64,000 nt of DNA from Halieaceae bacterium. Its GTDB lineage: Bacteria > Pseudomonadota > Gammaproteobacteria > Pseudomonadales > Halieaceae. Location of the stretch: contig JANQIO010000236.1 in assembly GCA_028282105.1 (NCBI GenBank), positions 14,571 to 78,570 of the forward strand, read 5' to 3'. Of the stretch, positions 10,958-34,677 are shown in pieces. Numbering within the stretch: the first letter of the stretch is position 1; every line of letters begins with the position of its first letter. The position numbers and the translations under genes are program-made. Under the pieces are notes generated by a model that ran no database searches, was not told the origin of the DNA, and saw only the letters and a list, made by a program, of their open reading frames with translations.

Positions 10958-11033
10958 CCTGCCTGTGCCCTTGCGCCGCTTCTGGCAAGTCGCTAGATTT
11001 CGAAGCCGGAACTATACCCACGGAACATCCTCA

Positions 11034-12086
11034 ATGCCAGCGATTTGGTTAATAGACGCTTACCGCGCCGGTGAGCGCGGTCAGGTGCGCGCGCTGGCAA
11101 GCGCGGTGTCGGCATCCCTGGGTTGGCCCTGTCATACCATCGAGCTGGACTACCGGGCGGCCGTGATCCTGCCACATATTATCGGCGCAGCCAGCGTCAG
11201 TGGCATTACCACGGAGGCCAGGGCCCGGCTGGCGCCACCCTGGCCAGACCTGGTGATTACCTGTGGGGTGCGCAACGAGCCCGTGTGTCGCTGGATCCGA
11301 GAGCAGTCCGGCGGCCACACCCGCTACCTGCACCTGGGCCGGCCCTGGGGGCCCCTGGACAGCTTTGACCTGGTAGTGACCACGCCCCAGTACCGGGTAC
11401 CCAAGCGCGACAATGTCGTCAATAACGAGCTCACCCTGCACGGTCTCGATAGTGAGCGGCTGGCGCAGGCCGCCGAGCGCTGGGGGCCAGAGTTTGCGGC
11501 ACTGCCCGCGCCCTACCTGACCGTCAATGTGGGTGGTAACAGCGGCCCGTTCACCTTTGGCAAGCGAGCCGCGCGGCGGCTTGCCCGAGAGGCCTCGGAC
11601 CTGGTCCGGCAACAGGGCGGTTCGCTGCTGGTCTCTACCAGTTCACGCACCTGCCCAGAGGCGGCGGCGGAACTCGAACGCCATATCGATGTGCCCTGCC
11701 AGGTGTATCACTGGCGCGAGGGCGACCCTGATAACCCCTACCTGGGCATGCTGGCCCTGGCCAAGCAGATCGTGGTGACCGGCGACAGTATTGCCATGCT
11801 GTCGGAGGCCTGCAGTACCGGCAAGCCGGTGTTTATCTTTGACCTGGGGGGGATGCGGGCGGAGGTTCCGGTAGCCAGGGACTTCCGCCTGGGTGGTGCC
11901 CTGTATGGCCTGTTGATGCGCTTCTTCTGGCGGCGCCTGTCCCGGGACATCACCCTGGTGCATCAACGTCTGGTGGCGGCGCGGCGGGCCAGCTGGCTGG
12001 GGGAAGCCGGCAGCCAGGTGCCGGAAACAGCCACCGACCTGGTGCGCACGGTAGACGCGGTTCGCGCGCTACTTGGTCAGGCCTAG
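11034..12086 (+). CDS. ELM1/GtrOC1-family putative glycosyltransferase, paralog A
   Basis: ORF track starts at a GTG at 10965; the ATG at 11034 (MPAIWLIDAYRAGERGQV) is preferred. Blocks PWPDLVITCGVRNEPVCRWIREQSGGHTRYLHLGRPW, DLVVTTPQY and VTGDSIAMLSEA are shared with the two paralogs. The 3' end overlaps the convergent ABC gene by 18 nt. Confidence 0.72.
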   Translation: MPAIWLIDAYRAGERGQVRALASAVSASLGWPCHTIELDYRAAVILPHIIGAASVSGITTEARARLAPPWPDLVITCGVRNEPVCRWIREQSGGHTRYLHLGRPWGPLDSFDLVVTTPQYRVPKRDNVVNNELTLHGLDSERLAQAAERWGPEFAALPAPYLTVNVGGNSGPFTFGKRAARRLAREASDLVRQQGGSLLVSTSSRTCPEAAAELERHIDVPCQVYHWREGDPDNPYLGMLALAKQIVVTGDSIAMLSEACSTGKPVFIFDLGGMRAEVPVARDFRLGGALYGLLMRFFWRRLSRDITLVHQRLVAARRASWLGEAGSQVPETATDLVRTVDAVRALLGQA

Positions 12087-13823
12087 TTCGGGGTCTACGT
12101 CCAGCAGTCGGGCGCTGCCGTCGATCAACTGGTAGACCCGGTCGGCGGCACTGACCATGGCGCGGTTGTGGGAAATGGCGAGAATCGTGAGCTGCCCCTT
12201 GAGCTGTTCCATGGATTCCCGCACCGCGGCTTCACTGTCCGGGTCCAGGGCGCTGGTCGCCTCGTCGAGAATCAACAGTCGCGGCTGATTGACCAGTGCC
12301 CTGGCGATCACTATCCGCTGGCGCTGCCCCCCGGATAATTTGCCGCCCCGTTCGCCGACCACGGTTTCCAGGCCCTCCGGCAGGCGCTGGATGAAGTCCC
12401 AGGCGCCGGCCGCCCGCAGGGCGCGCTCCGCATCCGCCAGACTCAGCTCCGGGTCACCCAGGGTGACGTTGTGCAGGATGCTGTCATGCAGCAACACGGT
12501 GTCCTGGGGCACGTAGCCGATCATGTCGCGCCAGGCGCGAATATCCAGCGCTTCCAGGGAGCGGCCATCGAGCTGGATCTCGCCGCTGTCTGGCCGCAGC
12601 AAACCGATGGTCAAATCGATAATCGTGGTCTTGCCGGCCCCCGATGGCCCCACCAGGGTGGTCAACGAGCCGGCGGGGACATCCAGGGCCAGGCCCTTGA
12701 ACACACTGTGCTTGTCGTAGGCGAAGCTGACGCTGTCAAAGCGAATGCCCTGGTCGAGACTGGGACGCTCGCCGCCGTGAAGCTGCTCGCGGGCGGAGTT
12801 GGCGGCCTCGATGCTGTCGAGCATGGCCCAGTAGGCGCTCTCACCCTGTACCAGCTTCTGGTACTGCTTCTGCACCTTGCCGAGAAAGCTGAAGGCCCGG
12901 CCAAGGGTAACCACCAGCACCATGACGGTGGTGAGCGCCATGCCATAGCCTTCCAGCGCCACGTAAATGCCCAGACAGATGAACAGGGCGAACATCAGTT
13001 CCTGGGCGGAATCGAGGACCGCGGCGCTCAGCACCTGCACTCGCAGAGCCTTGTTGAGCCGCCGGGTCTCGTGGGCGAGTACGGTATCCGCCAGGTGTTC
13101 CCTGGCCATCGCCTTCAGCGGCTTCACAGACTGCAGGGTGTCGGTCAGGTTGGCGATCAGTGAGGTCATCAGGTTGGTTTGCTTGCGGCCCGCCTTGCGG
13201 GTGATGCGCACCAGGAAATGGGACAGGCCGATGACCACCGCGCCGGCGCCAATGGCCACCAGCGATGCCCGCCAGGAGAGTGCGAAGGCCACGCTGCCAT
13301 AGATAACGGCCTGGATCAGGAAAGTGATGGCGGTGGCGCCGTGCACGAAAGAAGCGGAAGAGCGCTGGGCCTCGGTAGCCAGGGAATTGGTGAGCTTGCC
13401 CACTGGCTGGTGCAGGAAGTACTCCCATTTACTGCGCAGCACAGCGCGTAACATCTTCAAGCGCAGGTCGGTGCCGACCTGGGCGGCGGTATAACCTACC
13501 TGGCGCTGGGCCAGCAGCAGGAAGCAGCTCTTCAGCGCCACGCCGGCCACGATGATCAACAGCATGTTGCCCAGTGTCGGGTGGATGCCCAGCGTGTCCA
13601 GCGCGCCCAGCACGGCGGCCTCAAAGCCGGACTGGGCCTCACCGGCGGCACCCAGGCCCAGCTCAGCGGCGGCCGAACTGGCCTCGCCGCCCACGGCGAT
13701 ATTCAGCAGCGGCAGCAGGGCGGACAGACCGACGCCCTCGGCGATGCCCGACAGCAGCAGCGCCACCAGCATCAGCACGGTGTGCAGCCGGTAGGCGCGG
13801 AAAAAACTCAGCATCAGCTTCAT
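12069..13823 (-). CDS. ABC exporter, fused permease/ATPase (MsbA-type architecture)
   Basis: 584 aa with an N-terminal 6-TM domain. Walker A GPSGAGKTT, signature LSGGQRQR, Walker B LLILDEATSALD. Same strand as lptF-lptG and 88 nt downstream of them. Confidence 0.9.
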   Translation of the reverse strand: MKLMLSFFRAYRLHTVLMLVALLLSGIAEGVGLSALLPLLNIAVGGEASSAAAELGLGAAGEAQSGFEAAVLGALDTLGIHPTLGNMLLIIVAGVALKSCFLLLAQRQVGYTAAQVGTDLRLKMLRAVLRSKWEYFLHQPVGKLTNSLATEAQRSSASFVHGATAITFLIQAVIYGSVAFALSWRASLVAIGAGAVVIGLSHFLVRITRKAGRKQTNLMTSLIANLTDTLQSVKPLKAMAREHLADTVLAHETRRLNKALRVQVLSAAVLDSAQELMFALFICLGIYVALEGYGMALTTVMVLVVTLGRAFSFLGKVQKQYQKLVQGESAYWAMLDSIEAANSAREQLHGGERPSLDQGIRFDSVSFAYDKHSVFKGLALDVPAGSLTTLVGPSGAGKTTIIDLTIGLLRPDSGEIQLDGRSLEALDIRAWRDMIGYVPQDTVLLHDSILHNVTLGDPELSLADAERALRAAGAWDFIQRLPEGLETVVGERGGKLSGGQRQRIVIARALVNQPRLLILDEATSALDPDSEAAVRESMEQLKGQLTILAISHNRAMVSAADRVYQLIDGSARLLDVDPELGLTK

Positions 13824-13911: not shown

Positions 13912-14982
13912 TCACCATCGCATCCGCCGCAGCAGCAGCAGGGCCGCGGCCATCACGATCAGCGTGGGGGTGAAGGCAACCACCGGCACGCTGATCGCCA
14001 GCAGCTGGCCCAGCGCGTAAATTATTTGCGCGCCGAGGTAGAACAGGATGCCTACCAGCGCCCCAACCGCCAGGTTGAAACCGAAATTGCTGTTGCGTCG
14101 GGAACCCAGGCTCGCGGCAATCGGCGTGGCCAGCAGCACCATGGCGCCGACGGTCAGCGGCATGGCGAGTTTCTGCCAGAAGGCGCCCAGATAGGTCTGC
14201 CAGGCCTGGCCGTTGGCCTTGCGGAACTGGCTGTAACTGTAGAGCACGGACAGGGTCATGCTGTCGGGTGTCAGAGCCAGGGTGGGCAGCTCGTCCTCTG
14301 CCCACATGCCGCCCACTTCCAGCTCCTGGTAGCCGCGGGTCTGAAACACGCCGTCCACCAGTCGCTTCTCCCGCACCCGTTTCAGCAGCCAACGCCGGCC
14401 CGACACCACCTCCGCACTGCGGGCGTGCAAGGTACGGATCAGCTGTCCCGCCGCGTCGAACTCATACAGGTCGATGCCGCCAGGCACGCCGCCTTCTTCC
14501 AGTCGCGCCAGGTGCACGTAGCGTTGCTGGTGCCGTGCCCAGACGCCGCCATCGGGGATGCGCACGTCGCCGCGATAACGCAGGTGGTGGCGCTGTTGCT
14601 CGGCATACTGGTGCAGGCGAGGGGTGCCGAATTCCTGGCTCGCCCACAGCAAGCCCATCAGTATCAGGGTGGGCAGCGCCACCGCGGTCAGCAGCGAGCC
14701 GCGCGAGACGCCGGCGCAGCTGATCACGGTGAGCTCGTTGTAGCGATCGAGGTTGGCGAGCGCCATGATACTGCCGAGCAAGGCGATGACCGGTGCCAGA
14801 CTCACGAGTTGTTGGGGCAGGGTGAACAGGGTGTAGCGCGCCACCGCCAGCGCGTCGTAGTCAAAGCGGGTGCGCTCGAGCTCGGTGATAAAAGCGATCA
14901 AACCAAATACTGAGCCTACCACCAGCAACACCATCAGCCAGCCTCGCACCAGGTTACCGGCGATATAGCGGTGCAGAATCAT
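13912..14982 (-). CDS. lptG: LptF/LptG-family permease (LptG-like)
   Basis: ORF track extends to 15264; trimmed to the ATG at 14982 (MILHRYIAGNLVRGWLMVLL). The layout of 3 TM, a periplasmic domain and 3 TM resembles E. coli LptG. ATGA overlap with the upstream lptF-like gene. Confidence 0.78.
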   Translation of the reverse strand: MILHRYIAGNLVRGWLMVLLVVGSVFGLIAFITELERTRFDYDALAVARYTLFTLPQQLVSLAPVIALLGSIMALANLDRYNELTVISCAGVSRGSLLTAVALPTLILMGLLWASQEFGTPRLHQYAEQQRHHLRYRGDVRIPDGGVWARHQQRYVHLARLEEGGVPGGIDLYEFDAAGQLIRTLHARSAEVVSGRRWLLKRVREKRLVDGVFQTRGYQELEVGGMWAEDELPTLALTPDSMTLSVLYSYSQFRKANGQAWQTYLGAFWQKLAMPLTVGAMVLLATPIAASLGSRRNSNFGFNLAVGALVGILFYLGAQIIYALGQLLAISVPVVAFTPTLIVMAAALLLLRRMRW

Positions 14983-16106
14983 GTGGCCGCCGCCTGCTTC
15001 TGTCGCCGGCGCCAGCGCGGTGGATTCACCAGCAACACCAGGATAACCAGCACTACCGCGTGGGCAGCCCACAGGCCCGGGAAGCGCGGCACGGTACCCT
15101 GTTCGATGCCGGTGCGCATCACGGCGGTGAGGCTCAACAGGCCGATGTAGATCCCCAGCGCCACAAAGAAACTGCGCAGCCGCGATTCCCTCGGAGCGGT
15201 GCGCCCCAGCGGTACGGCTACCAGGGCCAGCAGCAGCGTGGCAATCGGTGTGGTGATACGCCACTGGTACTCGGCGATATCCTTGGGTTCTGCTGACCGC
15301 GAGAGGGTGAGGGTGGTTTCTGCCTTGCGCCGGTACTGCTCCCTGGCTTCTTCATTGGCCAGGTGGACCTCCATGCGCTTGAACTGCAGTGTGATGTCCT
15401 GGCGCTCGCGCTTGTCGAGCAGGTAGTTGTAGCCGTTGTGAAATTCCGCGGTTAGCGCCTGGCCCGGGTTCAGGGTAGGCAGTGCGGCGGATTCCGCGAT
15501 GATGATTTCCTCGCGCCCCTTACCCGGGTAGTGCTTCTGCATGAAGATGCCCTTGTGCAGGCCGCGATCCAGGTCAAGACCCTGGGCGATGAAGGTATAG
15601 TCGCTGCCCTCCATGTTGACGAACTCACCGGCCGACATCTTCTTCAGGTCAAACTGTGCGGCGGCTTCAGCTTCCAGACGATAGCTCTCGCGATAGGCCC
15701 AGGGTCGGCCGAGCATGGAGACCACGCCAGTGACGATGGCCACCACGACGGCCAGCTTGAACACCGCCTCCAGGATGCGCGTGCGGCTGAGACCCGCAGC
15801 GTAGAGGGCGTTCATTTCTGCATCGCGATACATGCGGCCAATGGCAGCGAGCACCGAGAAGAAAAAGGCGGATGGCAGTAACACCTCCAGGGTCACCAGC
15901 GTGTTGAGCCCCACCAGTTTGAAGGCCGTGAGCATATCCAGCTTTCCCTGGGCGGCCAGCCCCAGTTGCACGGATGCGGAGTAACCAATGAACACCAGAA
16001 TCAGCAGGCCGAGGCCGGAGACAAAGGGGCGCAGGATTTCCAGGCTTATGTAGCGATCGACGATCAAGCGAGCGGTCCCTGTCCGCGAGGGGGTTGTTGC
16101 GCGCAT
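14979..16106 (-). CDS. lptF: LptF/LptG-family permease (LptF-like)
   Basis: ORF track extends to 16580; trimmed to the ATG at 16106 (MRATTPSRTGTARLIVDRYISLEILRPF). The true start could be a few codons further in. The upstream extension runs through a tandem repeat array and is judged non-coding. Confidence 0.72.
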   Translation of the reverse strand: MRATTPSRTGTARLIVDRYISLEILRPFVSGLGLLILVFIGYSASVQLGLAAQGKLDMLTAFKLVGLNTLVTLEVLLPSAFFFSVLAAIGRMYRDAEMNALYAAGLSRTRILEAVFKLAVVVAIVTGVVSMLGRPWAYRESYRLEAEAAAQFDLKKMSAGEFVNMEGSDYTFIAQGLDLDRGLHKGIFMQKHYPGKGREEIIIAESAALPTLNPGQALTAEFHNGYNYLLDKRERQDITLQFKRMEVHLANEEAREQYRRKAETTLTLSRSAEPKDIAEYQWRITTPIATLLLALVAVPLGRTAPRESRLRSFFVALGIYIGLLSLTAVMRTGIEQGTVPRFPGLWAAHAVVLVILVLLVNPPRWRRRQKQAAAT

Positions 16107-16401: not shown

Positions 16402-17334
16402 ATGATCAAGCTGAGCGACGGCGTCAAGAAGGCGCTGATACTCATTCCTACCGAGCCCCTGCCCGCAAAAACCCGGGTGGCGCTGCGTCGCAAGCACCTG
16501 GCGAACCTGGAGCTGGCCAAAGCCCATGCCGCCCAGTTCCTGATCATCGGCCATCCCAAGAGTGGCAATACCTGGCTCAAGGTGATGATCTCCAGGTTGT
16601 ACCAACTGCGCTACGACCTGCCCGAATCCAAGCTCATCAACACCGACGAGTTCGCCCGCAAGATTCCCGAAATCCCGAGGCTCGCTGCCACCAACGGCGT
16701 CTATAGCTACGAAGGCGAGGTGGGCAAACTGCTCGCAGTCGGCGCCGCAGATAACCCCCTGCGCCACAAGCCGGTACTGTTCCTGGCGCGCAACCCGATC
16801 GACATCGCCGTAAGCTGGTATCACCAGTTCACCAAGCGCCAGTCCCGCGCCAAGCAGGAATTGATCAACCACTCCATCGAACATCCTATCGATCGCCGCA
16901 CGGTGCAGATGTGGGATTTCGTGCGGCATTCCGATATTGGGCTGCCGTTCCTGATCGGCTACCAGAATCAATGGGCTGAAGCGATCGCCGAGCTGCCCCG
17001 GGGCCTGATGGTGCGCTACGAGGATCTGCGCGCCGACCCGGTGCCAACCCTGCACAAGATTGTCGAGCATATGGGCGAGAGTTTCTCCGAAGATGAGGTG
17101 CGCGCCGCGGTGGAGTGGGGCTCCTTTGACAACCTGCAGAAGCTGGAAACCAGCGGCACCTTCAGCCAGGGTGGCATGAAACTGGTGAACAAGAACGACC
17201 CCAGCACCTACAAGGTGCGGCGCGGCAAGGTGGGTGGCTATCGGGACGACTTTGAGCCGGCGCAGGTGGCCGAGTTGGAAGCGCTGGTGCGGGAGACTAT
17301 TTCTCCTCAGCTCGGCTACTGCCGCGAGGACTGA
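16402..17334 (+). CDS. PAPS-dependent sulfotransferase, paralog 1 (divergent)
   Basis: 310 aa. 5'-PSB loop GHPKSGNTW, block LARNPIDIAVSWYH, and C-terminal RRGKVGGYRDDF, all as in Sulfotransfer_1-type enzymes. Confidence 0.85.
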   Translation: MIKLSDGVKKALILIPTEPLPAKTRVALRRKHLANLELAKAHAAQFLIIGHPKSGNTWLKVMISRLYQLRYDLPESKLINTDEFARKIPEIPRLAATNGVYSYEGEVGKLLAVGAADNPLRHKPVLFLARNPIDIAVSWYHQFTKRQSRAKQELINHSIEHPIDRRTVQMWDFVRHSDIGLPFLIGYQNQWAEAIAELPRGLMVRYEDLRADPVPTLHKIVEHMGESFSEDEVRAAVEWGSFDNLQKLETSGTFSQGGMKLVNKNDPSTYKVRRGKVGGYRDDFEPAQVAELEALVRETISPQLGYCRED

Positions 17335-17335
17335 G

Positions 17336-26408: not shown

Positions 26409-27371
26409 TCAGCGCGAGTAGTAGTTGATGCTGCGCCCGGTGAGGGAGGTGTAGAGCACCCCGAAGGCCTTGGCCATGCGGTACAGGTTGTGCATCAGCA
26501 TGCCCTTGGAGAACACTGAAAAGGGCAGCAAAAACAACGACATAAGGATTTTGCTGAGGGAGGTGGCCAACAGTTTAATGGCCCGTATGCCGGTGCCGTG
26601 GGCGCGCGCCATGCTGACCTGCGAGCAGCCATTCTTGAACCCTCGCTTGAGCAGGCCGCGGGCGGTGTAGCGCTCGGGCTCATGGTTGCGGTGAATCACC
26701 GACATATCCGCCGATGCCAGGCTGGCCCCCAACTCGTGGGCGCGAATGAAGAAGTCCTTGTCCTCGCCACCGCTGAAGCGGAAGGTGTGGTTGAACACCG
26801 GGCCGATGGTGGCGATCCGCTCGAGGATGCTGCGGCCCACCAAGGCGTTGCAGGTGGAGGCACAGCCGGGCAGGCCGTAGCGGCCGCCTTTGTTTTCATG
26901 CTTGGCTTTCACCGGTGAGCGGAAGATCCCGGATTCCCTCGCCCATTGGGGCATGAAGGAATCGAGCACCCAGGTACCGAATACCAGGTCGGCGCCGGTC
27001 ACGGCCTGCCGGTCCAGCAGCTGGATGAGCCAGTCGGACTGCGGCTGGTCGTCGTCGTCGATAAAGGCCAGGAAATCGGCGCCCCGCTCCAGGGCCACCT
27101 CGACCCCGCGGTTGCGGGCGTAGGTTATACCGGAGCGCGGCTCGGTCACGTAGTGAATAGAGATCGGCAGGCGCGGCGCCGCGCGCTGGCAGATGGCTTC
27201 GGTTTCGGGATTGGGGTTGTTGTCAACCACGATCAGCTCCACCGAGCTCGGGTTGTAGCCGCTGAGGTCGATATCCTGCAGCGCGACCAGCAGGCGCATC
27301 AGTCCCTGGGAGCGACTGTGGGTGCAGACGCAGATGGCGACCCGCAGGTCGATGATCGTGCTGACTGTCAT
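26409..27371 (-). CDS. Family 2 glycosyltransferase
   Basis: ORF track extends to 27440; trimmed to the ATG at 27371 (MTVSTIIDLRVAICVCTHSR). Blocks VVDNNPNPET, ARNRG and AFIDDDD (DxD) fit the GT2 pattern. Confidence 0.82.
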   Translation of the reverse strand: MTVSTIIDLRVAICVCTHSRSQGLMRLLVALQDIDLSGYNPSSVELIVVDNNPNPETEAICQRAAPRLPISIHYVTEPRSGITYARNRGVEVALERGADFLAFIDDDDQPQSDWLIQLLDRQAVTGADLVFGTWVLDSFMPQWARESGIFRSPVKAKHENKGGRYGLPGCASTCNALVGRSILERIATIGPVFNHTFRFSGGEDKDFFIRAHELGASLASADMSVIHRNHEPERYTARGLLKRGFKNGCSQVSMARAHGTGIRAIKLLATSLSKILMSLFLLPFSVFSKGMLMHNLYRMAKAFGVLYTSLTGRSINYYSR

Positions 27372-27394
27372 GGTGAGACTGTCATTGTGAATTG

Positions 27395-28321
27395 CTACTT
27401 GAAAATACCGCGGCGGTAGAGGCCCCAGAAAAAGCCCCACATGTGAACCAGTGGACGCCGCCGCACGCGCTCGGGAATCTCAATCGGCTCCCCCGAGTGG
27501 CGCTCCAGCTTCCATGCGATATAGTCGAGTCCCCCCTCGAACGTAAACAGTGCCTTGACCAGGCGCAGCACTGATAGTGTCTTTCCCTGTACCACCCGCA
27601 GGCGCCATGCCCACGCTGCCGTCTTCCTGACGCCTGTGGGTATGTCGCTCCTATAGCGTTCATCATACACATGAAATGGGAACACAAGCGAATCGGCGTG
27701 GAATGTTGTGACGGACCGGTAGAAATCGGCTGCGGTGAGCACCAGTTCCCGCGCGCGGCCGCTGCGCTCCGTGCGCAGCTCGGTGCCGTAGCTCAAGCCC
27801 AGCGCGCCCTCCCACAGCTCCGCCAGCGAGCCCTCCGCCGGCAGGGCCGGCAGGGCCCTGTGCAATAGCGTGTAGGCGGCGTCCAGCAGACAGTCTTCGA
27901 CCTGTTGTCGGGTTTGTGGGCTGCGGCTCCAGGCAATCCGGGTGGGCTGCGCAAAGCGACCCCAGATATAAGACTGGAACCAGCCGCGGCTGCAGCCGCG
28001 GCGGAAGTCTGCCAGCGAGATCACCGTCACCTTGCTGCGCAGCACCTGTTTGTCCCAGAGCTGCTCGGCGTAGAACACGTTGGGGGGCAACAGCCGGTTG
28101 GCCAGCGCCAGAACGCCGTGGCCATAGGCCTGCGGGTAATCGTCGCACAGCAGGTAGATATCCAGCAGGCCGTCAAAGATGTCGCCGCTGCGCAGGCAGG
28201 ACCCGTATACCAGCACTGCCGCGATCGAGTCGTTGTGGCGTTGGCGCAGGGCCGAGACCAACTGGCCCAGGGCCGGGTGACTCTCGGTATCCGGGCCGTT
28301 GACGGCGGGATAATCACTCAT
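27395..28321 (-). CDS. Hypothetical protein with Tam41/Mmp37-like (nucleotidyltransferase-fold) pattern
   Basis: 308 aa. The pattern VLVYGSCLRSG..LLDIYLLCDD...PPNVFY...KVTVISLADF....WFQSYIWGRFAQPTRI resembles, from memory, the Tam41 pattern YGSG..DxIFxV...VYFNP..KYGVxS...L...W..xYLxGRxQKP. ATGA overlap with the upstream kinase gene. Needs an HMM check. Confidence 0.4.
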   Translation of the reverse strand: MSDYPAVNGPDTESHPALGQLVSALRQRHNDSIAAVLVYGSCLRSGDIFDGLLDIYLLCDDYPQAYGHGVLALANRLLPPNVFYAEQLWDKQVLRSKVTVISLADFRRGCSRGWFQSYIWGRFAQPTRIAWSRSPQTRQQVEDCLLDAAYTLLHRALPALPAEGSLAELWEGALGLSYGTELRTERSGRARELVLTAADFYRSVTTFHADSLVFPFHVYDERYRSDIPTGVRKTAAWAWRLRVVQGKTLSVLRLVKALFTFEGGLDYIAWKLERHSGEPIEIPERVRRRPLVHMWGFFWGLYRRGIFK

Positions 28322-29283
28322 GGCCGGATAAACGTCAGCGCCTCGGTAGCGCTGATGTCCAGCGGTCCATGCACCGGCAGGATTTCACCGTCCAGGTTCA
28401 CCTCGCCTTCCATCCACAGTTGCACGTTGTCGGCATTGTGACTGAAGTAGCCCTGGGCGGGTACCGCGTTGCGGCTGGGCTTGCCGCGGGCGATGCTGGC
28501 GAAGGTGCGGGCGAAGCGGCTGCAGCCCTGTTCCATCAGGGTCAGGCGCAGGGCGCCGGGTCCGGTTCCCCAGAACGGGCGCATTCCAAAGGCCAGCCGC
28601 CCCAGGGTGCTGACTGCCAGGATCAGCGCCTCGTGGTCGGTCCTGGGCTGCCCGTCAAGGCTAAGGCCAATGCGTTGGTCGCCGGTGAACTCCGGCTGTC
28701 CGCGCACTACGCCCCAGACGGTGCGCAGCGTGCCCAGCGCCAGGCTGAAATCATCTCGCAGGCCGCGGGAGTGGATTTCGCGATGCGCGTACTCGGTGCC
28801 CTGGATAACGGCACCGGCGCCCAGGAACATGCCAAAGTGGCGCTGTTCACCGATATCCAGGCGCAGCAGCCGCCGCTGACGAGGCGGCTCCGATAGACCG
28901 CGCTGGCCCCCACACCAATCGCAGAAGCGATTGACCGCGCGCGCCAGTGAGCCGCGCAGGCCAACGTCCCCGGCGTTCATATTGGCGGTGCCGCCCGGCA
29001 GCAATACCACGGCGGGCGGCGTCGCGAAGAACCCACCCTCCAGCATCTGGCCCAGCAGCGCCGAGTTGGTGCCGTCGCCGCCGTTGATGCCCAGCACTTC
29101 GATCCCCAGCTCTGCCAGGGTGCTGAGCGCTGCCGGTATCTCCTCCGCGCTGTGGGTGACGATATGGTGAATCGATGGCGTCGCATCGATGCGCTGGCGG
29201 AACTGCTCGAACTGGTCGCGGTTGTGGCCACTGGCCGGGTTGCTGACCAGGCCCACCGGCGTGTCTGCCGTAAAGCGGGTCAC
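28318..29283 (-). CDS. Diacylglycerol-kinase-fold lipid kinase (YegS/sphingosine/ceramide-kinase-like)
   Basis: 321 aa. N-terminal VSNPASGHN and the catalytic-domain signature GINGGDGT. GTG start overlaps the upstream stop (GTGA). Confidence 0.78.
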   Translation of the reverse strand: MTRFTADTPVGLVSNPASGHNRDQFEQFRQRIDATPSIHHIVTHSAEEIPAALSTLAELGIEVLGINGGDGTNSALLGQMLEGGFFATPPAVVLLPGGTANMNAGDVGLRGSLARAVNRFCDWCGGQRGLSEPPRQRRLLRLDIGEQRHFGMFLGAGAVIQGTEYAHREIHSRGLRDDFSLALGTLRTVWGVVRGQPEFTGDQRIGLSLDGQPRTDHEALILAVSTLGRLAFGMRPFWGTGPGALRLTLMEQGCSRFARTFASIARGKPSRNAVPAQGYFSHNADNVQLWMEGEVNLDGEILPVHGPLDISATEALTFIRP

Positions 29284-30062
29284 GGTGTGGAATCCCGCAA
29301 CTCCACGGACTTCAGGGTCAGCGCCACGTAGCCCAGTCGGGGCGCCTTGCCCCGCACCTGCAGCGGCAGGCCGGTCTCGCGGTCGAAGGCCAGCAGCAGC
29401 TCGCCGGACAGGCCCAGCAAGCTGAAGTCGGGTTTGTCCGCCGCGGGTTGCAGCAGCTCTGCAGTGACCAGCAGCAGGTCTACCTCGCGGTGCCGGGTGC
29501 CAAAGCCGGCGAGCGCTGGATCCACCTCGACGAGATCTTCACCCGCGGCTTTGGCGCTGACCCGGTACAGGTTGAGGTCGGTATTCACCAGGAAGCTCTG
29601 GCTGGCTGCACCGGGCTGGAGCAGGGCAATCAGCAGCAGGGGATCGGTGACCCGCGGCTCGCCTTCCGGGTAGTCGATCCGGCGCTGGCTGGTGAGCTGC
29701 CATTCGCCGCTGGCATCGGGCTCCAGGCGCTCGCGGCTAATCCCGTTCAAACCGTAGCGCCATTGCTTGCGGCGCCGGTCATTGCCCTCGCTGAAGCGCC
29801 GACGCTCCAACAGGCTGCCATCGGGGCGGGCGCTGAGGCTGATGCGCTCACGGTTATTGGCCACGCTGTTGCTGGCTTCCAGGCACCAGGCTGCTGCGGA
29901 CTCCTGACAGGCATCGAGCTCCAGTTGTGATCGCGCCGTGGCCCAGAAAGCTTTTTCTTCAAACACCAGGGAGCGCCAGGCCGGCAGCGGTGATTCGGTC
30001 GTCGGTTCGGCGCCGGCCAGCAACGGCAGGCCGAGCAGGATAGTCAGCGCCAGCGGTTTCAT
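29280..30062 (-). CDS. Secreted hypothetical protein
   Basis: ORF track extends to 30155; trimmed to the ATG at 30062 (MKPLALTILLGLPLLAGAEP, a signal peptide). ATGA overlap with the upstream O-antigen-ligase-like gene. No family recognised. Confidence 0.55.
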   Translation of the reverse strand: MKPLALTILLGLPLLAGAEPTTESPLPAWRSLVFEEKAFWATARSQLELDACQESAAAWCLEASNSVANNRERISLSARPDGSLLERRRFSEGNDRRRKQWRYGLNGISRERLEPDASGEWQLTSQRRIDYPEGEPRVTDPLLLIALLQPGAASQSFLVNTDLNLYRVSAKAAGEDLVEVDPALAGFGTRHREVDLLLVTAELLQPAADKPDFSLLGLSGELLLAFDRETGLPLQVRGKAPRLGYVALTLKSVELRDSTP

Positions 30063-31228
30063 TCGACGCTCCCAGCCTGGAAAGGCAGCCTGTGCCCATG
30101 CCGGTGCGGATAGGCTGCGGCCACCAGGGCGACCGGCAGCCACAGGTACAGCCACATCTCCTTGGGGTGCACGAACAGGCGATCGAAATCCATGAATATG
30201 CAGGTCATACCGTATAAGAGTAGCGCGAGGTAGAGTCGTTCCCCACGGCTTCTGAGCAGTCCCACGGCCTGCACCAGTGCCGTACCGAGCAGCACCAGCA
30301 GCAGTATCAGCCCTACCAGACCGCCATCCCGCAGGGTGGCCAGGTAGCTATTGTGAGCGTGGTTGAATACCCGGTCGTAGGCGCTGACGTGGGGGTCCGC
30401 CAGGTAGCCGTGGCCCAGCAGCCAGTGGCCCGGCATATCCGCCACCACCTGCTGCCAGATGCCGGGCCGGAAGGAAAAACTCAGCACCCGGCTTGCCCAC
30501 TCGCCCGGGTTGCTGGCCAGCAGCCCCAGGCTGACCACGCCGGCGGCCAGCGCCGGCAGCAGCGCCCGCCAGCCCAGCAGGACCAGCAAACCCATGCACA
30601 CACCTGCCAGGGCGGTGCGGGACTGGGTCAGCAGCACTAGGGCACCCAGCACCAGGGCCAGGCCGGCGTAGGCCCAGCGGCGCGGCCGGTCATCGATGGC
30701 CAGTTGCACGCTCAGTACCAGGAACAGGCCATAGGCAGCACCGGCCTTGTTCTGGTGATGCATGACACCCAGAGGCTCCAGTCGAGCGCTGGGGAAAGGA
30801 TGCTGGGCATACCAGCTGACAATCGAGACCAGGGCTGCAGCGGCTGCCAGCCAGGGCAGCCAGCGGCCATAGCTGTCAATCTGTTCGGCGTTGTTGATCC
30901 ACAGGTAGCCGGTAATCGCCACGAAGGACAGCAAGTTGAGGCTCAGCCACAGCTGCCAGCCGGCGGCGGCGACGCTGAAGTTTGTCGACCAGGCCAGAGT
31001 CAGCATCATCCATCCGGCGTAGGCCAGCACCAGGGCCAGCAACTGATTGCCCCGGTAGAAACGGTAAAGCTCGCGCCACAGCAGCACCACGGCGGGAAAC
31101 ACCAGCAGGTAGTAGAGGCGTCGGTGCCCCGATGCCATGGGCAGGAGAAAATAGCCGGCAATGAACAGGCTGTACAGGTACAGCATGCCGCGCTCGAGCA
31201 GGAATCCTCGAATTTGCCTGATTTCCAT
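30059..31228 (-). CDS. O-antigen ligase/polymerase-family (Wzy_C-type) polytopic membrane protein
   Basis: ORF track extends to 31639, antisense into the next gene; trimmed to the ATG at 31228 (MEIRQIRGF). About 10 TM segments. Blocks LTQSRTALAG and GHGYL....HAHNSYLATLRDGGLVGL are typical of WaaL/Wzy_C. Confidence 0.72.
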   Translation of the reverse strand: MEIRQIRGFLLERGMLYLYSLFIAGYFLLPMASGHRRLYYLLVFPAVVLLWRELYRFYRGNQLLALVLAYAGWMMLTLAWSTNFSVAAAGWQLWLSLNLLSFVAITGYLWINNAEQIDSYGRWLPWLAAAAALVSIVSWYAQHPFPSARLEPLGVMHHQNKAGAAYGLFLVLSVQLAIDDRPRRWAYAGLALVLGALVLLTQSRTALAGVCMGLLVLLGWRALLPALAAGVVSLGLLASNPGEWASRVLSFSFRPGIWQQVVADMPGHWLLGHGYLADPHVSAYDRVFNHAHNSYLATLRDGGLVGLILLLVLLGTALVQAVGLLRSRGERLYLALLLYGMTCIFMDFDRLFVHPKEMWLYLWLPVALVAAAYPHRHGHRLPFQAGSVE

Positions 31229-31345
31229 TGAGATCAATAACTTGGGGCCGGCGAAAGGCGGCAAAAATACCACAGAATCTTGTGCATGGACCACGCATCC
31301 TTTACCCTGCGCGTTTTTTAACCTGCCCGGTTCCGGGGACATTAC

Positions 31346-32290
31346 ATGCACGCTGTTATCAAGCGACTGATTAAGTGGCTGGTCCGCGCGATCAAGAAAT
31401 TCCTGCCCGAAGAACAGGGCCACAAGCTGGAGCGCTGGCGCCGCGGTCGCGAGGAATTCTGGAAATACAGGCAATGTGATTACATCTTTGCCTCCTATGG
31501 CAAAAGCGGCCGCACCTGGGTGCGGGTGATGATCTCCCGCTATTACCAACTGGTCTACAAACTGCCCGACAACATCCTGATGGGCTTCGACAACTACCAG
31601 CGCCTGAACCGCGATATACCGAAGATATTCTTCACTCACGACAACTACCTGCGACAGTTCACCGGCAACATGGACTCGAAACAGGACTTCTACGATAAGA
31701 AGACGGTGCTATTGGTCCGTGACCCACGCGATGTGGCGGTGTCGCAGTTCTTCCAGTGGAAGTTCCGCATGCGGCCCGACAAGAAGTCCATGAACAACTA
31801 CCCGGAGCACGAAGCTGACATCTCCGTCTACGACTTCGTGAAGCACCAGGGGCAGGGCCTCAACCACATCATAGATTTTATGAACGCCTGGGCCACTGAG
31901 CTGGATAAGATCGAGAACCTGCTGATTGTGCGCTACGAAGACCTGCGTGCCGACGCCGCCACCGAGATGGCGCGGGTGGTGGATTTCCTGGGCATGGAGC
32001 CCAATCGCGAATACCTGGAAGACATGGCGGAGTTCGCCTCGGTGGAAAACCTGCGCAAAAAGGAACAGGAAAACTACTTCTGGCGCAGCGGCTCCCGGGT
32101 GCAGGCCAAGGACGTCAACGACCCCAATACCTACAAGGTGCGCAAAGCCAAGGTCGGGGGCTTCCGGGACTACTTTGACGATGATCAAGTGGCAGAACTA
32201 AGCGCCATGGTAGATTCGCGCCTGCTCCCGGTGTTCGGCTATACCAGCGCCGAACAGCAGGGGACGGCGGCACAAGCGAGCGAATCCTGA
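31346..32290 (+). CDS. PAPS-dependent sulfotransferase, paralog 4
   Basis: 314 aa. 5'-PSB loop YGKSGRTW, block LLVRDPRDVAVSQFFQWKF, and C-terminal RKAKVGGFRDYF. Confidence 0.85.
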   Translation: MHAVIKRLIKWLVRAIKKFLPEEQGHKLERWRRGREEFWKYRQCDYIFASYGKSGRTWVRVMISRYYQLVYKLPDNILMGFDNYQRLNRDIPKIFFTHDNYLRQFTGNMDSKQDFYDKKTVLLVRDPRDVAVSQFFQWKFRMRPDKKSMNNYPEHEADISVYDFVKHQGQGLNHIIDFMNAWATELDKIENLLIVRYEDLRADAATEMARVVDFLGMEPNREYLEDMAEFASVENLRKKEQENYFWRSGSRVQAKDVNDPNTYKVRKAKVGGFRDYFDDDQVAELSAMVDSRLLPVFGYTSAEQQGTAAQASES

Positions 32291-32291
32291 C

Positions 32292-33212
32292 ATGGAAAAA
32301 TGCGTCTTTATACACACCAATGAACGGCAGTGGCTGGGTGCGCTGGTGGCGGAGTATTCCTTCAAACGCAACTCACGCAATCCCGACGCGTTTGACGTTC
32401 GTTTCATCCATACCCGCGACCATGCCTTCCTCGCGGAGAAGGAAGGCAAGACCTTCCTGCGCGGCGGCACCACCCGCGAATGGCGCATGGACGACCTGCA
32501 GTCCTTTACACCGCTGCGCTTTCTACCGCCCAAGCTGATGAGTTTCGGCGGCCGCGCCGTGGTCACCGACCCGGATGTGTTCGCTGTGGGCGACATCAAC
32601 GAGCTGCTGGACCGTGATATGCAGGGCAAGGCCGTACTCGGACGCCACCGCTCTGCGAAAGAGGGCAAGGCTTACCAGGTGGCCACCAGCGTCATGCTGA
32701 TGGACTGCGCGAAGCTCTCGCACTGGGATGTGGAAGCCGACTTCGACGCCCTGTTCCGCTACGAGAAAGACTACAAGGAATGGATGGTGTTGGCCTACGA
32801 GGACCCTGAGAACATCGGTTACCTCGAAGACTGCTGGAACGACTTCGACCACCTGGGCGCTGAGACCCGCTTGCTGCACAACACCAAGCGCCGTACCCAG
32901 CCCTGGAAGACGGGCCTGCCGGTGGACTATACGCCGGCGGACAAATTCAAGGACAAGCCCCTGCTGGCTTCTCTCAACCGACTGCGGGCTCGACTGTTTG
33001 GCGAATACGGCCTGCTGGGCCACTACCACCCGCACCCGGATAGTCACCAGGAGGCCTTTTTCTTCGGTCTGCTCAAGGAATGCCTTGAGCACGGCCATGT
33101 TAGCGAAGCCCTGGTGCGAGACGAAATGGCGAAGAACCACGTGCGCCACGACGCCTTCGAGGTGCTGGAGCGCACCCCGCCGCTGACGGAGCAGCCTGCT
33201 CTGGCAGCCTGA
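32292..33212 (+). CDS. Uncharacterised GT-A-like putative glycosyltransferase, paralog C
   Basis: 306 aa. The ATG lies 1 nt after the sulfotransferase 4 stop. Blocks FIHTNERQ, LQSFTPLRF, GRAVVTDPDVFA, CWNDFD and HPDSHQEAFFFGLLKEC. Confidence 0.5.
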   Translation: MEKCVFIHTNERQWLGALVAEYSFKRNSRNPDAFDVRFIHTRDHAFLAEKEGKTFLRGGTTREWRMDDLQSFTPLRFLPPKLMSFGGRAVVTDPDVFAVGDINELLDRDMQGKAVLGRHRSAKEGKAYQVATSVMLMDCAKLSHWDVEADFDALFRYEKDYKEWMVLAYEDPENIGYLEDCWNDFDHLGAETRLLHNTKRRTQPWKTGLPVDYTPADKFKDKPLLASLNRLRARLFGEYGLLGHYHPHPDSHQEAFFFGLLKECLEHGHVSEALVRDEMAKNHVRHDAFEVLERTPPLTEQPALAA

Positions 33213-33244: not shown

Positions 33245-33961
33245 ATGAAATACCTGGATATTGAGAAACTCCGCGCGCTGGGCCGTGAGGAGTTCATGGC
33301 CACCAGGCCCTACCCGTTCTTCAACACCGAGGGCATGCTCACCGAGCAGGGCTTCCAGGATCTGCTGCACAACATGCCGCCGCTGGAGTCCTTCGGCGAG
33401 ATCTTCGGCAAGGAGCGCCGCGCCGGCCAGGCCCCCCATGATCGCTACTCGCTGGAGTACACCCCGGACACCGAGGTGCCCCTGCCCTGGAAAGAGTTTA
33501 TCGGCGAGCTGTGCAGCGATGACTACCGCCGGGAGATTGAGCGCCTGCTGGGCGCGAAGAAGGCGGAATTCCGCTTTCACTGGCACTACACGCCGACGGG
33601 GCGCGACGTCTCACCCCACTGCGATGCCCGCCGCGAGCATGGCTCACACCTGTTCTACTTCAACTCGGAAGAGGACTGGAAACCGGAGTGGGGTGGATCC
33701 ACTCTGGTGTTGGATGATGGTGGGCGCCTCAGCTATGACTCGGCGCCGGCCCTGGAAGAGTTCGATTCGGTGCACGAGATGGATTCCATCGGCAACTACA
33801 GCGCCCTGATGTTGCGCACCGATCACGCCTGGCACGCAGTTCGGCCCATCAACTGCCCGGAAGACCGGCTGCGGCGCATCTTCATCGTGGTCGTCAATCC
33901 CGACAAGCTGTTCTGGAAGGTGCGTGACCGCATCATCGGCAAGCAGATCCAGCGCTTCTGA
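33245..33961 (+). CDS. Small 2OG-Fe(II) oxygenase-superfamily protein, paralog B
   Basis: 238 aa. Blocks VSPHCDARREHGSHLFYFN and DHAWHAV (HxD...H candidates). Same general layout as 18466..19092. Confidence 0.6.
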   Translation: MKYLDIEKLRALGREEFMATRPYPFFNTEGMLTEQGFQDLLHNMPPLESFGEIFGKERRAGQAPHDRYSLEYTPDTEVPLPWKEFIGELCSDDYRREIERLLGAKKAEFRFHWHYTPTGRDVSPHCDARREHGSHLFYFNSEEDWKPEWGGSTLVLDDGGRLSYDSAPALEEFDSVHEMDSIGNYSALMLRTDHAWHAVRPINCPEDRLRRIFIVVVNPDKLFWKVRDRIIGKQIQRF

Positions 33962-33966
33962 GCGGC

Positions 33967-34677
33967 TTGCCTGAACAGCTTGGGCCTGGCTCGGCCCACC
34001 TCTGGCTGTGCTCCCTGGAGGCGGCATCCGCCCTTGACGCCTCGGTGCTGAGCGCCGAGGAGGCTGCGCGTCGCCCCGAGGCCGCCCTGGGCCGTGTCTG
34101 GCAGCGTCACCTGCTCTCGCACTACGCCGCCACATCCCCTGCCGACTGGCAGTTTGAGACTGGCCGCCACGGCAAACCCCGGCTGACGCCCGTGCAGCCG
34201 CTGGAATTCAATCTCAGCCATTCCGGCGACTGGTTGGTGATGGTAGTGGCTGAGGGAGTACCGGTGGGGGTCGACATCCAGCAGTGGGACTCCCAGCGCC
34301 GGCTAGACCGGCTGGCCCGACGGTATTTTTCGGGCCCGGAAGTCGAGCTGTTGTCCAGCCTGGACGGGGATGCGCAGTTGCGGCACTTCTATCGGCTCTG
34401 GACCCTCAAGGAGGCGTGGACCAAGGCCCATGGCGGTGCCCTGCCTACCGCGCTGGGTGAGGTCGGCTATCGGCTGGAGGGGGAGGCTCTTGTCTGCCTG
34501 GCGCCGGGTGCTGGCGAGCACAGCAGCCAGTGGTTGGCCGAACTGGACGGTTACAGCCTGGCGTTTTGCGGCCTGCAGCGGGGCATCGCGCTGCAGTCCA
34601 GGGAATGGTTGTCGCCTGCCCGTTTCAGGCCCTGCGAGTTGGCTGCCGTGGCCGGCGACGGCTTGCGGCAGGGGTGA
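33967..34677 (+). CDS. 4'-phosphopantetheinyl transferase (Sfp/EntD type)
   Basis: 236 aa from a TTG start in the ORF track. Blocks FNLSHSGDW, GVDIQ and WTLKEAWTKAHG are the classical PPTase motifs. Confidence 0.8.
   Translation: MPEQLGPGSAHLWLCSLEAASALDASVLSAEEAARRPEAALGRVWQRHLLSHYAATSPADWQFETGRHGKPRLTPVQPLEFNLSHSGDWLVMVVAEGVPVGVDIQQWDSQRRLDRLARRYFSGPEVELLSSLDGDAQLRHFYRLWTLKEAWTKAHGGALPTALGEVGYRLEGEALVCLAPGAGEHSSQWLAELDGYSLAFCGLQRGIALQSREWLSPARFRPCELAAVAGDGLRQG

Follow-up and report, generated by a model that had tools for sequence, protein, structure and literature searches.

A glycosyl- and sulfotransferase-rich gene island interleaved with ceramide genes in Halieaceae, a candidate locus for a sulfated outer-membrane sphingolipid

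The link between bacterial sphingolipids and the function of the outer membrane is a recent finding, and in Caulobacter the anionic sphingolipid CPG2 permits survival without lipid A. The Caulobacter cluster CC_1152-CC_1168 encodes ceramide synthesis by Spt, AcpR, AasR, CerR and bCerS, and its head group, ceramide (di)phosphoglycerate, depends on CpgB (a ceramide kinase of diacylglycerol-kinase fold), CpgC (Tam41-like), CpgA (a CDP-alcohol transferase), two nucleotidyltransferases including CpgD (CC_1152, CC_1153) and a calcineurin-type phosphoesterase (PMC11324152, PMC12275187). The same cluster also encodes a Wzx-like flippase and a second set of LptC/F/G (PMC11324152, PMC12275187). The clusters of Azotobacter and Pseudomonas luteola are compact, without extra glycosyltransferase or sulfotransferase genes, and the sphingolipid genes of S. 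wittichii and Z. mobilis are dispersed through the genome (PMC11324152). Here we describe a stretch of 64,000 nucleotides from a Halieaceae bacterium (assembly GCA_028282105.1, contig JANQIO010000236.1, positions 14,571 to 78,570), hereafter the window, in which ceramide genes border an island rich in glycosyltransferase, sulfotransferase and export genes. The island spans positions 10958-34677, between an acyl carrier protein (ACP) gene (10715-10957) and rplM (34808). It is very probably a functional part of the sphingolipid pathway, and we think it somewhat probable that the whole serves to build a sulfated ceramide-phosphate glycolipid, flip it and deliver it to the outer membrane.

The open reading frames (ORFs) of the window were mapped with guidance from the G+C content of third codon positions (GC3), the genes were scanned with Pfam and NCBIfam models, and paralogs were identified by self-BLAST. 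These scans recovered, at the given positions, every gene listed by an initial annotation made from the sequence alone (Table 1). Names used below are ST for PAPS (3'-phosphoadenosine-5'-phosphosulfate)-type sulfotransferases, 2OG for 2-oxoglutarate-Fe(II) oxygenases, ELM1 for ELM1/GtrOC1-type transferases, UNK for a family without a name, PPTase for the phosphopantetheinyl transferase and h291 for a secreted protein. Among Halieaceae, 49 related loci of 20 kb or more were surveyed by tblastn with the window proteins. Outside this family, loci from Thiogranum longum (L001), Porticoccaceae (L087), a Chromatiales metagenome-assembled genome (MAG; L088) and Gammaproteobacteria SG8_31 (L089) were examined. 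The nearest loci among species-representative genomes belong to Halieaceae MAGs, at 96-98% identity.

Glycosyltransferase and sulfotransferase genes were interleaved with sphingolipid genes in all 49 Halieaceae loci, with sulfotransferase homologs in 48. The order runs PPTase-2OGb-UNKc-ST4-(WaaL-like)-h291-kinase-Tam41-like-(GT2)-UNKb-ELM1c-UNKa and continues ST3-ST2-2OGa-ELM1b-ST1-LptF-LptG-ABC-ELM1a-ACP-Spt, and its recurrence in 49 of 49 loci is beyond chance. The kinase and Tam41-like genes were both present in every one of these loci, beside a GT8-like (UNK) gene. An ELM1 gene adjoins the ACP gene in L001, L002, L081 and L089, ELM1c neighbours UNKb in all related loci examined, and the ABC exporter gene follows LptF-LptG in the related loci.

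The four clusters outside Halieaceae (L001, L087, L088 and L089) all carry GT8-like, ELM1, sulfotransferase, 2OG oxygenase and Wzy_C genes, which are interleaved in varied orders with aasR, cerR, cerS, nucleotidyltransferase, metallophosphoesterase, diacylglycerol kinase (DAGK)-fold, spt and ACP genes. Linkage to spt, ACP, cerS, cerR and aasR has therefore outlasted the shuffling of gene order, which is strong evidence of a shared pathway. A metagenome scan centred on the sulfotransferases returned 38 loci of at least 6 kb, of which 17 held sphingolipid-specific genes and 11 more held other cluster genes; nine lacked cluster genes, and their sulfotransferases were at most 49% identical to a window copy. 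Whether the sulfotransferase, ELM1 and GT8-like genes travel with the spt-ACP set was a check proposed in the initial annotation, and at the level of loci they do so in five gammaproteobacterial lineages. Named isolates that bear the cluster are Chromatocurvus halotolerans DSM 23344, Pseudohaliea rubra DSM 19751, Halioglobus japonicus, Mangrovimicrobium sediminis and Thiogranum longum.

The genes are also tightly packed. The WaaL-like, h291, kinase and Tam41-like genes overlap successively by 4 nt, with GT2 and UNKb next on the same strand. In the row ST4, UNKc, 2OGb, PPTase the gaps are 1, 32 and 5 nt, and between ST1 and ELM1b the gap is 1 nt. ST2 and ST3 overlap by 4 nt, as do LptF and LptG, with the ABC exporter next in line. 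A further co-directional block consists of ACP, Spt, MurA and the phosphoesterase. From its place in the tight ST4-UNKc-2OGb row, the PPTase probably shares a transcript with the genes for a sulfotransferase, a GT8-like enzyme and an oxygenase. In related loci long enough to include rplM, it directly precedes that gene. The argument that a PPTase needed by the ACP, lying at the opposite end of the island, binds the region into one unit thus holds: it closes the ST4-GT8-2OG-PPTase operon and keeps this place in 39 of the 49 Halieaceae loci.

Table 1. Genes of the island and of the adjacent ceramide cluster, in order of position in the window. Scores are those of the models named.
Gene or feature	Position	Strand	Evidence and remarks
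LpxL-family acyltransferase (Lip_A_acyltrans)	83-1057	-	Follows aasR-cerR
cerR (candidate)	1145-2068	-	Generic Epimerase/SDR (short-chain dehydrogenase/reductase) match; after aasR
aasR	2077-3846	-	AMP-binding; FAAL subfamily model 791 bits, cut-off 600
Secreted protein, 202 aa	4463-5071	-	Internal signal-peptide-like start M32; weak DUF1579; between aasR and cerS
cerS (bCerS candidate)	5154-6356	+	Weak GNAT match, E 1e-4
Nucleotidyltransferase	6366-7184	+	NTP_transf_3; next to cerS
acpR-spt-murA-metallophosphoesterase operon	7265-10957	-	PP-binding, NCBIfam, Metallophos; outside island coordinates
Metallophosphoesterase	7265-8194	-	Metallophos; CC_1158-like
MurA, full length	8218-9468 (ORF 8218-9657)	-	TIGR01072 573 bits, cut-off 393; start at spt stop codon
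Spt, proteobacterial-type serine palmitoyltransferase	9468-10670	-	NF047599 593.6 bits, cut-off 500
ACP (acpR), 80 aa	10715-10957	-	PP-binding; 44 nt upstream of spt
ELM1a, ELM1/GtrOC1-type GT-B	11034-12086 (longest ORF 10965-12086, likely start M24)	+	PF06258 E 1.8e-60; divergent from ACP-spt
ABC exporter, ABCB-type half transporter, candidate flippase	12069-13823	-	ABC_membrane and ABC_tran
LptG-type permease	13912-14982	-	TIGR04408 264 bits, cut-off 240; 4-nt overlap with lptF stop
LptF-type permease	14979-16064	-	TIGR04407 272 bits, cut-off 230
ST1, PAPS-type sulfotransferase	16402-17334	+	PF00685 80.6 bits; PKSGNTW, RNPIDIAVS
ELM1b, ELM1-type GT-B	17336-18469 (ORF 17234-18469, start refined to M35)	+	PF06258 E 1.1e-49
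2OGa, 2OG-Fe(II) oxygenase, P4H-like	18466-19155	-	PF13640 36.5 bits (above cut-off); H126-x-D128, downstream HSWHGH
ST2, sulfotransferase	19147-20130	+	PF00685 84.2 bits; GKSGRTW, THNN, RDPRDVAVS
ST3, sulfotransferase	20127-21065	+	PF00685 88.6 bits; 4-nt overlap with ST2
DksA/TraR zinc-finger, MOSC and FAD oxidoreductase (DAO) genes	21373-23374	-	Pfam; about 2.3 kb
UNKa, GT8-like GT-A	23383-24285	-	58% identity to UNKb; DPDIF, HNTKRKTQPW
ELM1c, ELM1-type GT-B	24324-25388	+	PF06258 E 1.2e-52
UNKb, GT8-like GT-A	25363-26307 (ORF 25363-26340)	-	Most conserved island gene
GT2 (accessory)	26409-27371 (ORF 26409-27440)	-	PF00535 E 1.6e-19; DDD motif
Tam41-like nucleotidyltransferase, CpgC-like	27395-28321	-	Tam41_Mmp37 (Pfam) E 0.016; 4-nt overlap with kinase
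DAGK-fold lipid kinase, CpgB-like candidate ceramide kinase	28318-29283	-	PF00781 (DAGK_cat) E 8.9e-12; GGDGT at residue 68
h291, secreted, EipB/DUF1849-like (LolA-superfamily-like) beta-barrel, 260 aa	29283-30062 (ORF 29280-30155)	-	Signal peptide; missing from the initial annotation
Wzy_C/WaaL-like polytopic membrane protein (O-antigen-ligase family)	30059-31228 (ORF 30059-31639)	-	PF04932 weak, E 0.0023; at least 5 hydrophobic segments
ST4, sulfotransferase	31346-32290	+	PF00685 82.8 bits; all motifs; opens the ST4-UNKc-2OGb-PPTase operon
UNKc, GT8-like GT-A	32292-33212	+	55-58% identity to UNKa/UNKb; DPDVF; 1 nt after ST4
2OGb, 2OG-Fe(II) oxygenase	33245-33961	+	PF13640 23.5 bits, below cut-off 27; H125-x-D127
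Sfp/AcpT-type PPTase	33967-34677	+	PF01648 and PF22624; AcpT and HetI models sub-threshold

The initial annotation had left two readings standing: a lipopolysaccharide (LPS) or lipooligosaccharide (LOS) core locus, or the elaboration and export of a head group on the adjacent sphingolipid. In the former, the ELM1, GT8-like and GT2 enzymes would assemble the outer core of lipid A-Kdo (3-deoxy-D-manno-octulosonic acid) LPS, the sulfotransferases would sulfate that core, the WaaL-like protein would ligate O-antigen, an MsbA-like transporter and LptFG would carry out export, and the sphingolipid genes would be close by merely as part of a general envelope-lipid neighbourhood. The ELM1, GT8-like and WaaL-like families are indeed classic LOS/LPS families: ELM1 proteins go by the names GtrOC1/14/19/22 in the LOS outer-core loci of Acinetobacter, LgtC likewise has the GT8 fold, and the WaaL-like protein matches Wzy_C. 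An LpxL-family acyltransferase lies at the far end of the ceramide genes. However, Kdo transferase, heptosyltransferase, KdsB-type precursor and lpx core genes were absent from the window and from five annotated related clusters, as judged by Pfam families. Furthermore, the glycosyltransferase and sulfotransferase genes have 4-nt overlaps or common operons with the genes for the ceramide-kinase-like, CpgC-like and ACP-specific PPTase proteins, and their linkage to spt, ACP, cerS, cerR and aasR persists through reshuffling in five lineages. Interleaving in 49 of 49 Halieaceae loci, shuffled retention in four further lineages and the lack of Kdo/heptose genes favour head-group elaboration and export of the sphingolipid over an LPS core, which we regard as unlikely.

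The export genes bear on the same choice. LptF and LptG score above the equivalog cut-offs for LPS export, as an LPS core locus would have it. The best PDB match of LptF, however, is Pseudomonas aeruginosa LptF at just 135 bits, less than would be expected of a housekeeping ortholog from the same order (Pseudomonadales sensu GTDB), and in Porticoccaceae (L087, 18181-20319) LptF and LptG were called as a single fused protein of 712 aa inside the cluster. Both hint at a dedicated paralog like Caulobacter LptF2/G2. The exporter had been labelled MsbA-type in the initial annotation, a label that does not hold: it is not an MsbA ortholog, scoring below the cut-offs of the MsbA models (TIGR02203, 249.7 against 602 bits; NF008381, 197 against 867 bits), and among PDB entries ABCB1 (331 bits) and PglK (188 bits) are closer than MsbA (165 bits).

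Many Gammaproteobacteria carry lpxC after ftsZ. In the window, ftsZ (61137-62294) is followed, in 62295-64000, by a gene for an M23 peptidase, and tblastn of the window with an Escherichia coli LpxC sequence gave no match. The idea that these bacteria lack lipid A was considered on this ground and rejected, since type strains with the cluster have 3-OH C10-C12 fatty acids typical of lipid A, and LPS is probably made; the type strains of Chromatocurvus halotolerans and Pseudohaliea rubra have 3-OH fatty acids of 10:0-12:1, alongside unidentified phospholipids (PMC3679898). Genes elsewhere in the genome therefore probably make lipid A, and LPS and the sphingolipid would occur side by side, as they do in Caulobacter.

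The glycosyltransferases include a family that matched no Pfam model, Glyco_transf_8 included, even at E 10. Its three paralogs (UNKa, UNKb and UNKc) are mutually 55-58% identical by self-BLAST. UNKb has 5576 database homologs, of which the best 120 show 72-89% identity and come from several gammaproteobacterial orders, with best matches from Halieaceae, Chromatocurvus, Porticoccaceae, Chromatiales, Thiohalobacter and Thiogranum. The AlphaFold2 (AF2) model of UNKb (predicted local distance difference test, pLDDT, 93) gave Foldseek matches at probability 1.0 and template modelling (TM) scores of 0.4-0.57 to GlyE, the GT8 protein 3tzt, LgtC, XXYLT1, LARGE1 and glycogenin. D104, D106, H208 and W217 of UNKb are invariant or almost so among homologs, and the motifs DPD[IV]F (DxD type) and HxTxRxTQPW are kept in all three paralogs. 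The family is thus predicted to have a GT8-like GT-A fold, which narrows the earlier label "GT-A-like" on the strength of model, fold search and motifs. Distant GT8-like relatives (31-43% identity) were found in ordinary glycan loci; it is the conserved subfamily alone that marks the sphingolipid cluster. As for the others, ELM1a has no sequence relative in the PDB, ELM1b has a median best identity of 76% over the 49 loci, and GT2 is present in 22 of them. No signal peptide or transmembrane segment was found in the sulfotransferases, 2OG oxygenases, ELM1 or GT8-like proteins, GT2 being the exception, so these enzymes should act on the cytoplasmic face, before flipping.

The four sulfotransferases are pairwise 31-51% identical and lie well above the PF00685 cut-off of 22 bits. 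Their PAPS-binding motifs [GP]KSGxTW (5'-phosphosulfate binding, 5'-PSB) and RxPxDxAVS (3'-phosphate binding, 3'-PB) are invariant. The catalytic histidine of TH[DN]N is present in ST2-ST4 and missing at the aligned position in ST1, which is nonetheless the best conserved of the four (median 83% identity in 49 loci); ST1 may use another base, or bind instead of transferring. Apart from this histidine, catalytic motifs were intact in the island enzymes checked, and both 2OG oxygenases have the HxD...H motif and share RTDHxWH. Across 51 loci of 20 kb or more, three of them from lineages other than Halieaceae, the copy numbers of sulfotransferases and oxygenases co-vary (four and two in 33 loci, three and one in seven, two and none in three, none of either in one). 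UNKc, ST4 and 2OGb are jointly missing in several loci (e.g. L046, L048, L058, L061 and L067). The cluster of L002, complete from PPTase to ACP, carries neither enzyme and is a natural unsulfated comparator. This co-variation, together with L002, suggests that sulfation is a variable decoration on a conserved core. Judged by gene content, the sulfotransferases and 2OG oxygenases are accessory modules gained and lost together, and the core appears to consist of three ELM1 and two GT8-like transferases, the WaaL-like protein, h291, the kinase, the Tam41-like protein, LptFG and the ABC exporter.

The same genes could be read as sulfating the ceramide itself, the 2OG oxygenases hydroxylating the sphingoid base or N-acyl chain and the sulfotransferases esterifying the new hydroxyls, with the glycosyltransferases adding a short glycan or using another acceptor. 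The co-variation just described would suit this, including L002 with neither enzyme, as would the nearest solved relatives of the sulfotransferases, cytosolic SULT2A1-type hydroxysteroid and bile-salt enzymes that act on lipid hydroxyls. Black Sea lipidomes, moreover, hold sulfate-1-deoxyceramides with sulfate on the chains (PMC11334938). Yet a GT8-like gene follows ST4 by 1 nt and an ELM1 gene follows ST1 by 1 nt; UNKc, ST4 and 2OGb are gained or lost as a unit, which is better fitted by one sugar and its modification; and a single ceramide has few hydroxyls to occupy four sulfotransferases. We consider sulfation of the ceramide about as improbable as an LPS core locus, and sulfation of a ceramide-linked glycan remains our preferred interpretation. 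Finally, a sulfated exopolysaccharide or capsule made with the ABC exporter and a Wzy-like polymerase, without a tie to either membrane lipid, could in principle arise from glycosyltransferases, a Wzy_C-family protein, an ABC exporter and sulfotransferases, but is very improbable given that an initiating phosphoglycosyl transferase, Wza/Wzc, KpsD/E and Wzx were all absent from the window and related clusters, that LptF/LptG and the lipid kinase form integral parts of the locus, with translational coupling, and that linkage to spt is consistent.

Between the transferases lies the putative link to ceramide. The kinase gene adjoins the Tam41-like gene, as cpgB adjoins cpgC in Caulobacter and Azotobacter. 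A profile of 14 orthologs of the Tam41-like protein retrieved Schizosaccharomyces pombe Tam41 (6ig2) as its top PDB match, a weak (E 0.0086) but consistent result. No CDP-alcohol phosphatidyltransferase (CpgA; PF01066) was found among the 36 genes scanned in 83-38563, hence CPG2, or a second phosphoglycerate, is not expected as the product.

Upstream of the kinase gene, in the place of cpgA in Azotobacter, is h291, which is present in 47 of the 49 Halieaceae loci. Its call as a 260-aa gene is backed by a 100% identical protein (P0271). It had no Pfam or NCBIfam match and no PDB sequence match even by profile. Its AF2 model (pLDDT 91) best matched 6ntr, Brucella EipB/DUF1849 (TM 0.55-0.60), followed by RseB, MucB, LolA, VioE and EPDR1, of which RseB, MucB, LolA and EPDR1 have LolA-like folds that bind lipids; Brucella EipB is an envelope-integrity protein (10.1101/551135). 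From the fold, h291 may be a periplasmic sphingolipid-binding protein. An assignment of ORF 29280-30155 as Tam41-like or CpgA-like was rejected, given the lack of a family match, the signal peptide and the EipB-like barrel; the Tam41 signal lies on 27395-28321. The weak PF04932 match of the neighbouring WaaL-like protein is accompanied by unmarked matches on its positional counterparts in L001, L002 and L088.

Taken together, the genes suggest a pathway in which AasR, AcpR, Spt, bCerS and CerR would make dihydroceramide, with AcpR activated by the island PPTase. The CpgB-like kinase would then yield ceramide-1-phosphate, to which the CpgC/Tam41-like enzyme, the nucleotidyltransferase and the metallophosphoesterase would add the first phospho-linked unit. 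At the cytoplasmic face, three ELM1 GT-B, two or three GT8-like GT-A and one GT2 enzymes would extend an oligosaccharide, and up to four soluble PAPS-type sulfotransferases, with two 2OG oxygenases, would add sulfate esters by hydroxylation and sulfation. The ABC exporter would flip the lipid to the periplasmic side of the inner membrane. There the WaaL-like protein may attach more glycan and the EipB-like barrel may bind the lipid, and LptF/LptG would pass it to the Lpt bridge and so to the outer membrane. Family membership and synteny point to the kinase and head-group steps; for the later steps and the sulfated product we infer from family, predicted localisation, operon coupling and co-conservation. 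The proposal that the island elaborates and exports the adjacent sphingolipid is therefore strengthened by comparative genomics and operon coupling as regards the pathway, while the product itself is a prediction.

Several points weigh against this interpretation. The ELM1-type, GT8-like and WaaL-like families are best known from LPS/LOS core synthesis, and the LptF/LptG scores noted above exceed housekeeping cut-offs. The CpgB and CpgC assignments are family-level matches combined with adjacency, with a weak Tam41 signal (E about 0.01). In the window no genes for PAPS synthesis were found, and the acceptors of all transferases here are predicted. Polar-lipid surveys of Halieaceae give only phosphatidylglycerol, phosphatidylethanolamine and unidentified (amino)phospholipids, with no report of a sulfated or glycosylated sphingolipid.

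The locus suggests that the abundant coastal OM60/NOR5 clade (Halieaceae), and several sulfur-cycling and sediment Gammaproteobacteria, put LOS-type glycosylation and eukaryote-like sulfation on ceramide, with a Lpt entry of its own. More tentatively, many marine and sediment Gammaproteobacteria might make a second LPS-like glycolipid, a "sphingo-LOS" for which bacteria offer no described precedent, on ceramide phosphate rather than lipid A, with an oligosaccharide core made by ELM1-type and GT8-like transferases, sulfate charge, its own ABC flippase and LptFG, an EipB-like binder and possibly a WaaL-like cap. Carrying sulfate instead of phosphate charge would, if true, spare phosphorus in sulfate-rich seawater. 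The pathway, if correct, would define a new class of envelope glycolipid, give a function to a conserved "hypothetical" GT8-like family and to bacterial ELM1 proteins, and provide a genetic basis for the sulfated sphingolipids of marine lipidomes. It would also bear on interactions with phages, grazers and antimicrobial peptides, and on the marine phosphorus economy.

The supercluster is probably passed on vertically in Halieaceae. The initial annotation had called the island ancestral rather than mobile, which fits the level G+C throughout the island, the lack of tRNA genes in a scan of the window, the lack of mobility families among the window genes scanned with Pfam, and its constant neighbour, rplM, in every related locus long enough to reach it. 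No riboswitch or other Rfam element was found within the island by scan. The DksA, MOSC and FAD oxidoreductase genes share the strand of UNKa and lie downstream of it, spaced by 8, -11 and 9 nt, and occur in only 2-4 of the 49 related loci, those of the closest relatives; on this distribution they are best taken as a lineage-specific insert outside the system. The right flank is a Pseudomonas-like gammaproteobacterial backbone (rplM-rpsI-petA-petB/C1-sspA-sspB-SIS-YraN-LpoA-RsmI, RNase P RNA, mraZ to ftsZ). Here the Rieske subunit gene is followed by one for a fusion of cytochrome b and cytochrome c1 (675 aa, 36536-38563, + strand), and a bacterial class A RNase P RNA (321 bits, 44153-44500, + strand) lies between rsmI and mraZ.

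On the other side of the island, strong homology to characterised enzymes supports the predicted ceramide module (Spt, AcpR and AasR, with candidate bCerS and CerR). The positions of cerS, beside the nucleotidyltransferase, and cerR, after aasR, are as in Caulobacter and Azotobacter, and the aasR, cerR, cerS and nucleotidyltransferase genes (83-7184) map to CC_1165, CC_1164, CC_1154 and CC_1153/1152. A Pfam scan of the window found one NTP_transf_3 and one Metallophos protein, and thus no second nucleotidyltransferase.

Two further enzymes of this region stand out. MurA sits between spt and the CC_1158-like phosphoesterase, an order also seen in L090-L092 and L139. An alternative call of ORF 8218-9657 as AroA/EPSP (5-enolpyruvylshikimate-3-phosphate) synthase was rejected on the score of the MurA model. 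Either a housekeeping murA has been captured by the acp-spt operon, or an enolpyruvyl transferase is active in head-group chemistry; in Caulobacter the head group is phosphoglycerate, and mutants show cofitness with phosphoenolpyruvate (PEP) synthase. LpxL-family (lipid A secondary) acyltransferases, like the one at the end of the window cluster, also occur outside Halieaceae: in Porticoccaceae (L087, 4596-7176) and Chromatiales (L088, 15465-18115) the sphingolipid operon has two copies, one on either side of a fatty-acid hydroxylase gene. These genes suggest O-acylation of the ceramide, which would give it an acyloxyacyl group as in lipid A.

Among described systems the closest is that for Caulobacter CPG/CPG2 (PMC11324152, PMC9393093, PMC12275187), with which the locus shares Spt/AcpR/AasR, candidate CerR and bCerS, a DAGK-fold kinase beside a Tam41-like protein, a phosphoesterase, a nucleotidyltransferase by cerS, and LptF/LptG within the cluster. 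The kinase, the Tam41-like protein and LptFG are the likely counterparts of Caulobacter CpgB, CpgC and LptF2/G2, which makes this a characterised kind of system, and the Caulobacter product is an anionic outer-membrane sphingolipid, as the product here would be. Unlike Caulobacter, the island lacks CpgA, with the secreted EipB-like barrel in its place, and has one nucleotidyltransferase rather than two; LptC2 and a Wzx-type flippase were not seen in the window, which has an ABCB-type exporter instead. Compared with the Caulobacter, Azotobacter and P. luteola clusters there are about 12 extra genes, drawn from three ELM1, three GT8-like, one GT2, four sulfotransferase, two 2OG oxygenase, WaaL-like and PPTase genes.

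These additions recall other envelope systems. LOS outer-core (OC) and waa loci such as those of Acinetobacter baumannii (PMC4172580) also have ELM1 GT-B enzymes (GtrOC1/14/19/22), paralog-rich GT8/GT2 arrays, a WaaL-type ligase and Lpt export; unlike the island, they act on Kdo-lipid A and have no spt, ACP, ceramide kinase, PPTase linkage or SULT-type sulfotransferases. The glycosphingolipids GSL-1 to GSL-4 of sphingomonads and Zymomonas are, as proposed here, ceramide-anchored outer-membrane glycolipids in the role of LPS; a ceramide glucuronosyltransferase for such lipids is cited in PMC11324152. These systems, however, are not known to involve a phospho-linkage step, sulfation, or proteins of the ELM1, GT8-like or WaaL-like kinds. 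The bacterial ceramide glycosyltransferases known to us belong to family GT4 and use ceramide itself as the acceptor. PAPS-dependent sulfation of an envelope glycolipid is known from the sulfated LPS of Sinorhizobium meliloti (LpsS) and from mycobacterial sulfolipid-1 (Stf0), with lipid A and acylated trehalose as the respective anchors, one sulfotransferase each and no known link to sphingolipid genes. The sulfate-1-deoxyceramides of the Black Sea show that sulfate-ester bacterial sphingolipids exist in marine waters, but they differ from the lipid proposed here in having 1-deoxy bases, sulfate on the chain and no glycan, and they have been credited to anaerobic Desulfobacterota or Bacteroidota with no genes assigned (PMC11334938).

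Our literature searches, over 8 million full texts, yielded no paper that connects bacterial sphingolipid clusters with sulfotransferases, with ELM1-type or GT8-like transferases or with O-antigen ligases. The statement of the initial annotation that no characterised system has this combination is correct in part: the kinase, Tam41-like protein, phosphoesterase, nucleotidyltransferase and LptFG have precedents in CC_1152-CC_1168 (PMC11324152, PMC12275187), and the layer of ELM1, GT8-like, sulfotransferase, 2OG oxygenase, WaaL-like and ABC exporter genes is undescribed. The base sphingolipid system is known; for its glyco-sulfo elaboration these searches gave no precedent.

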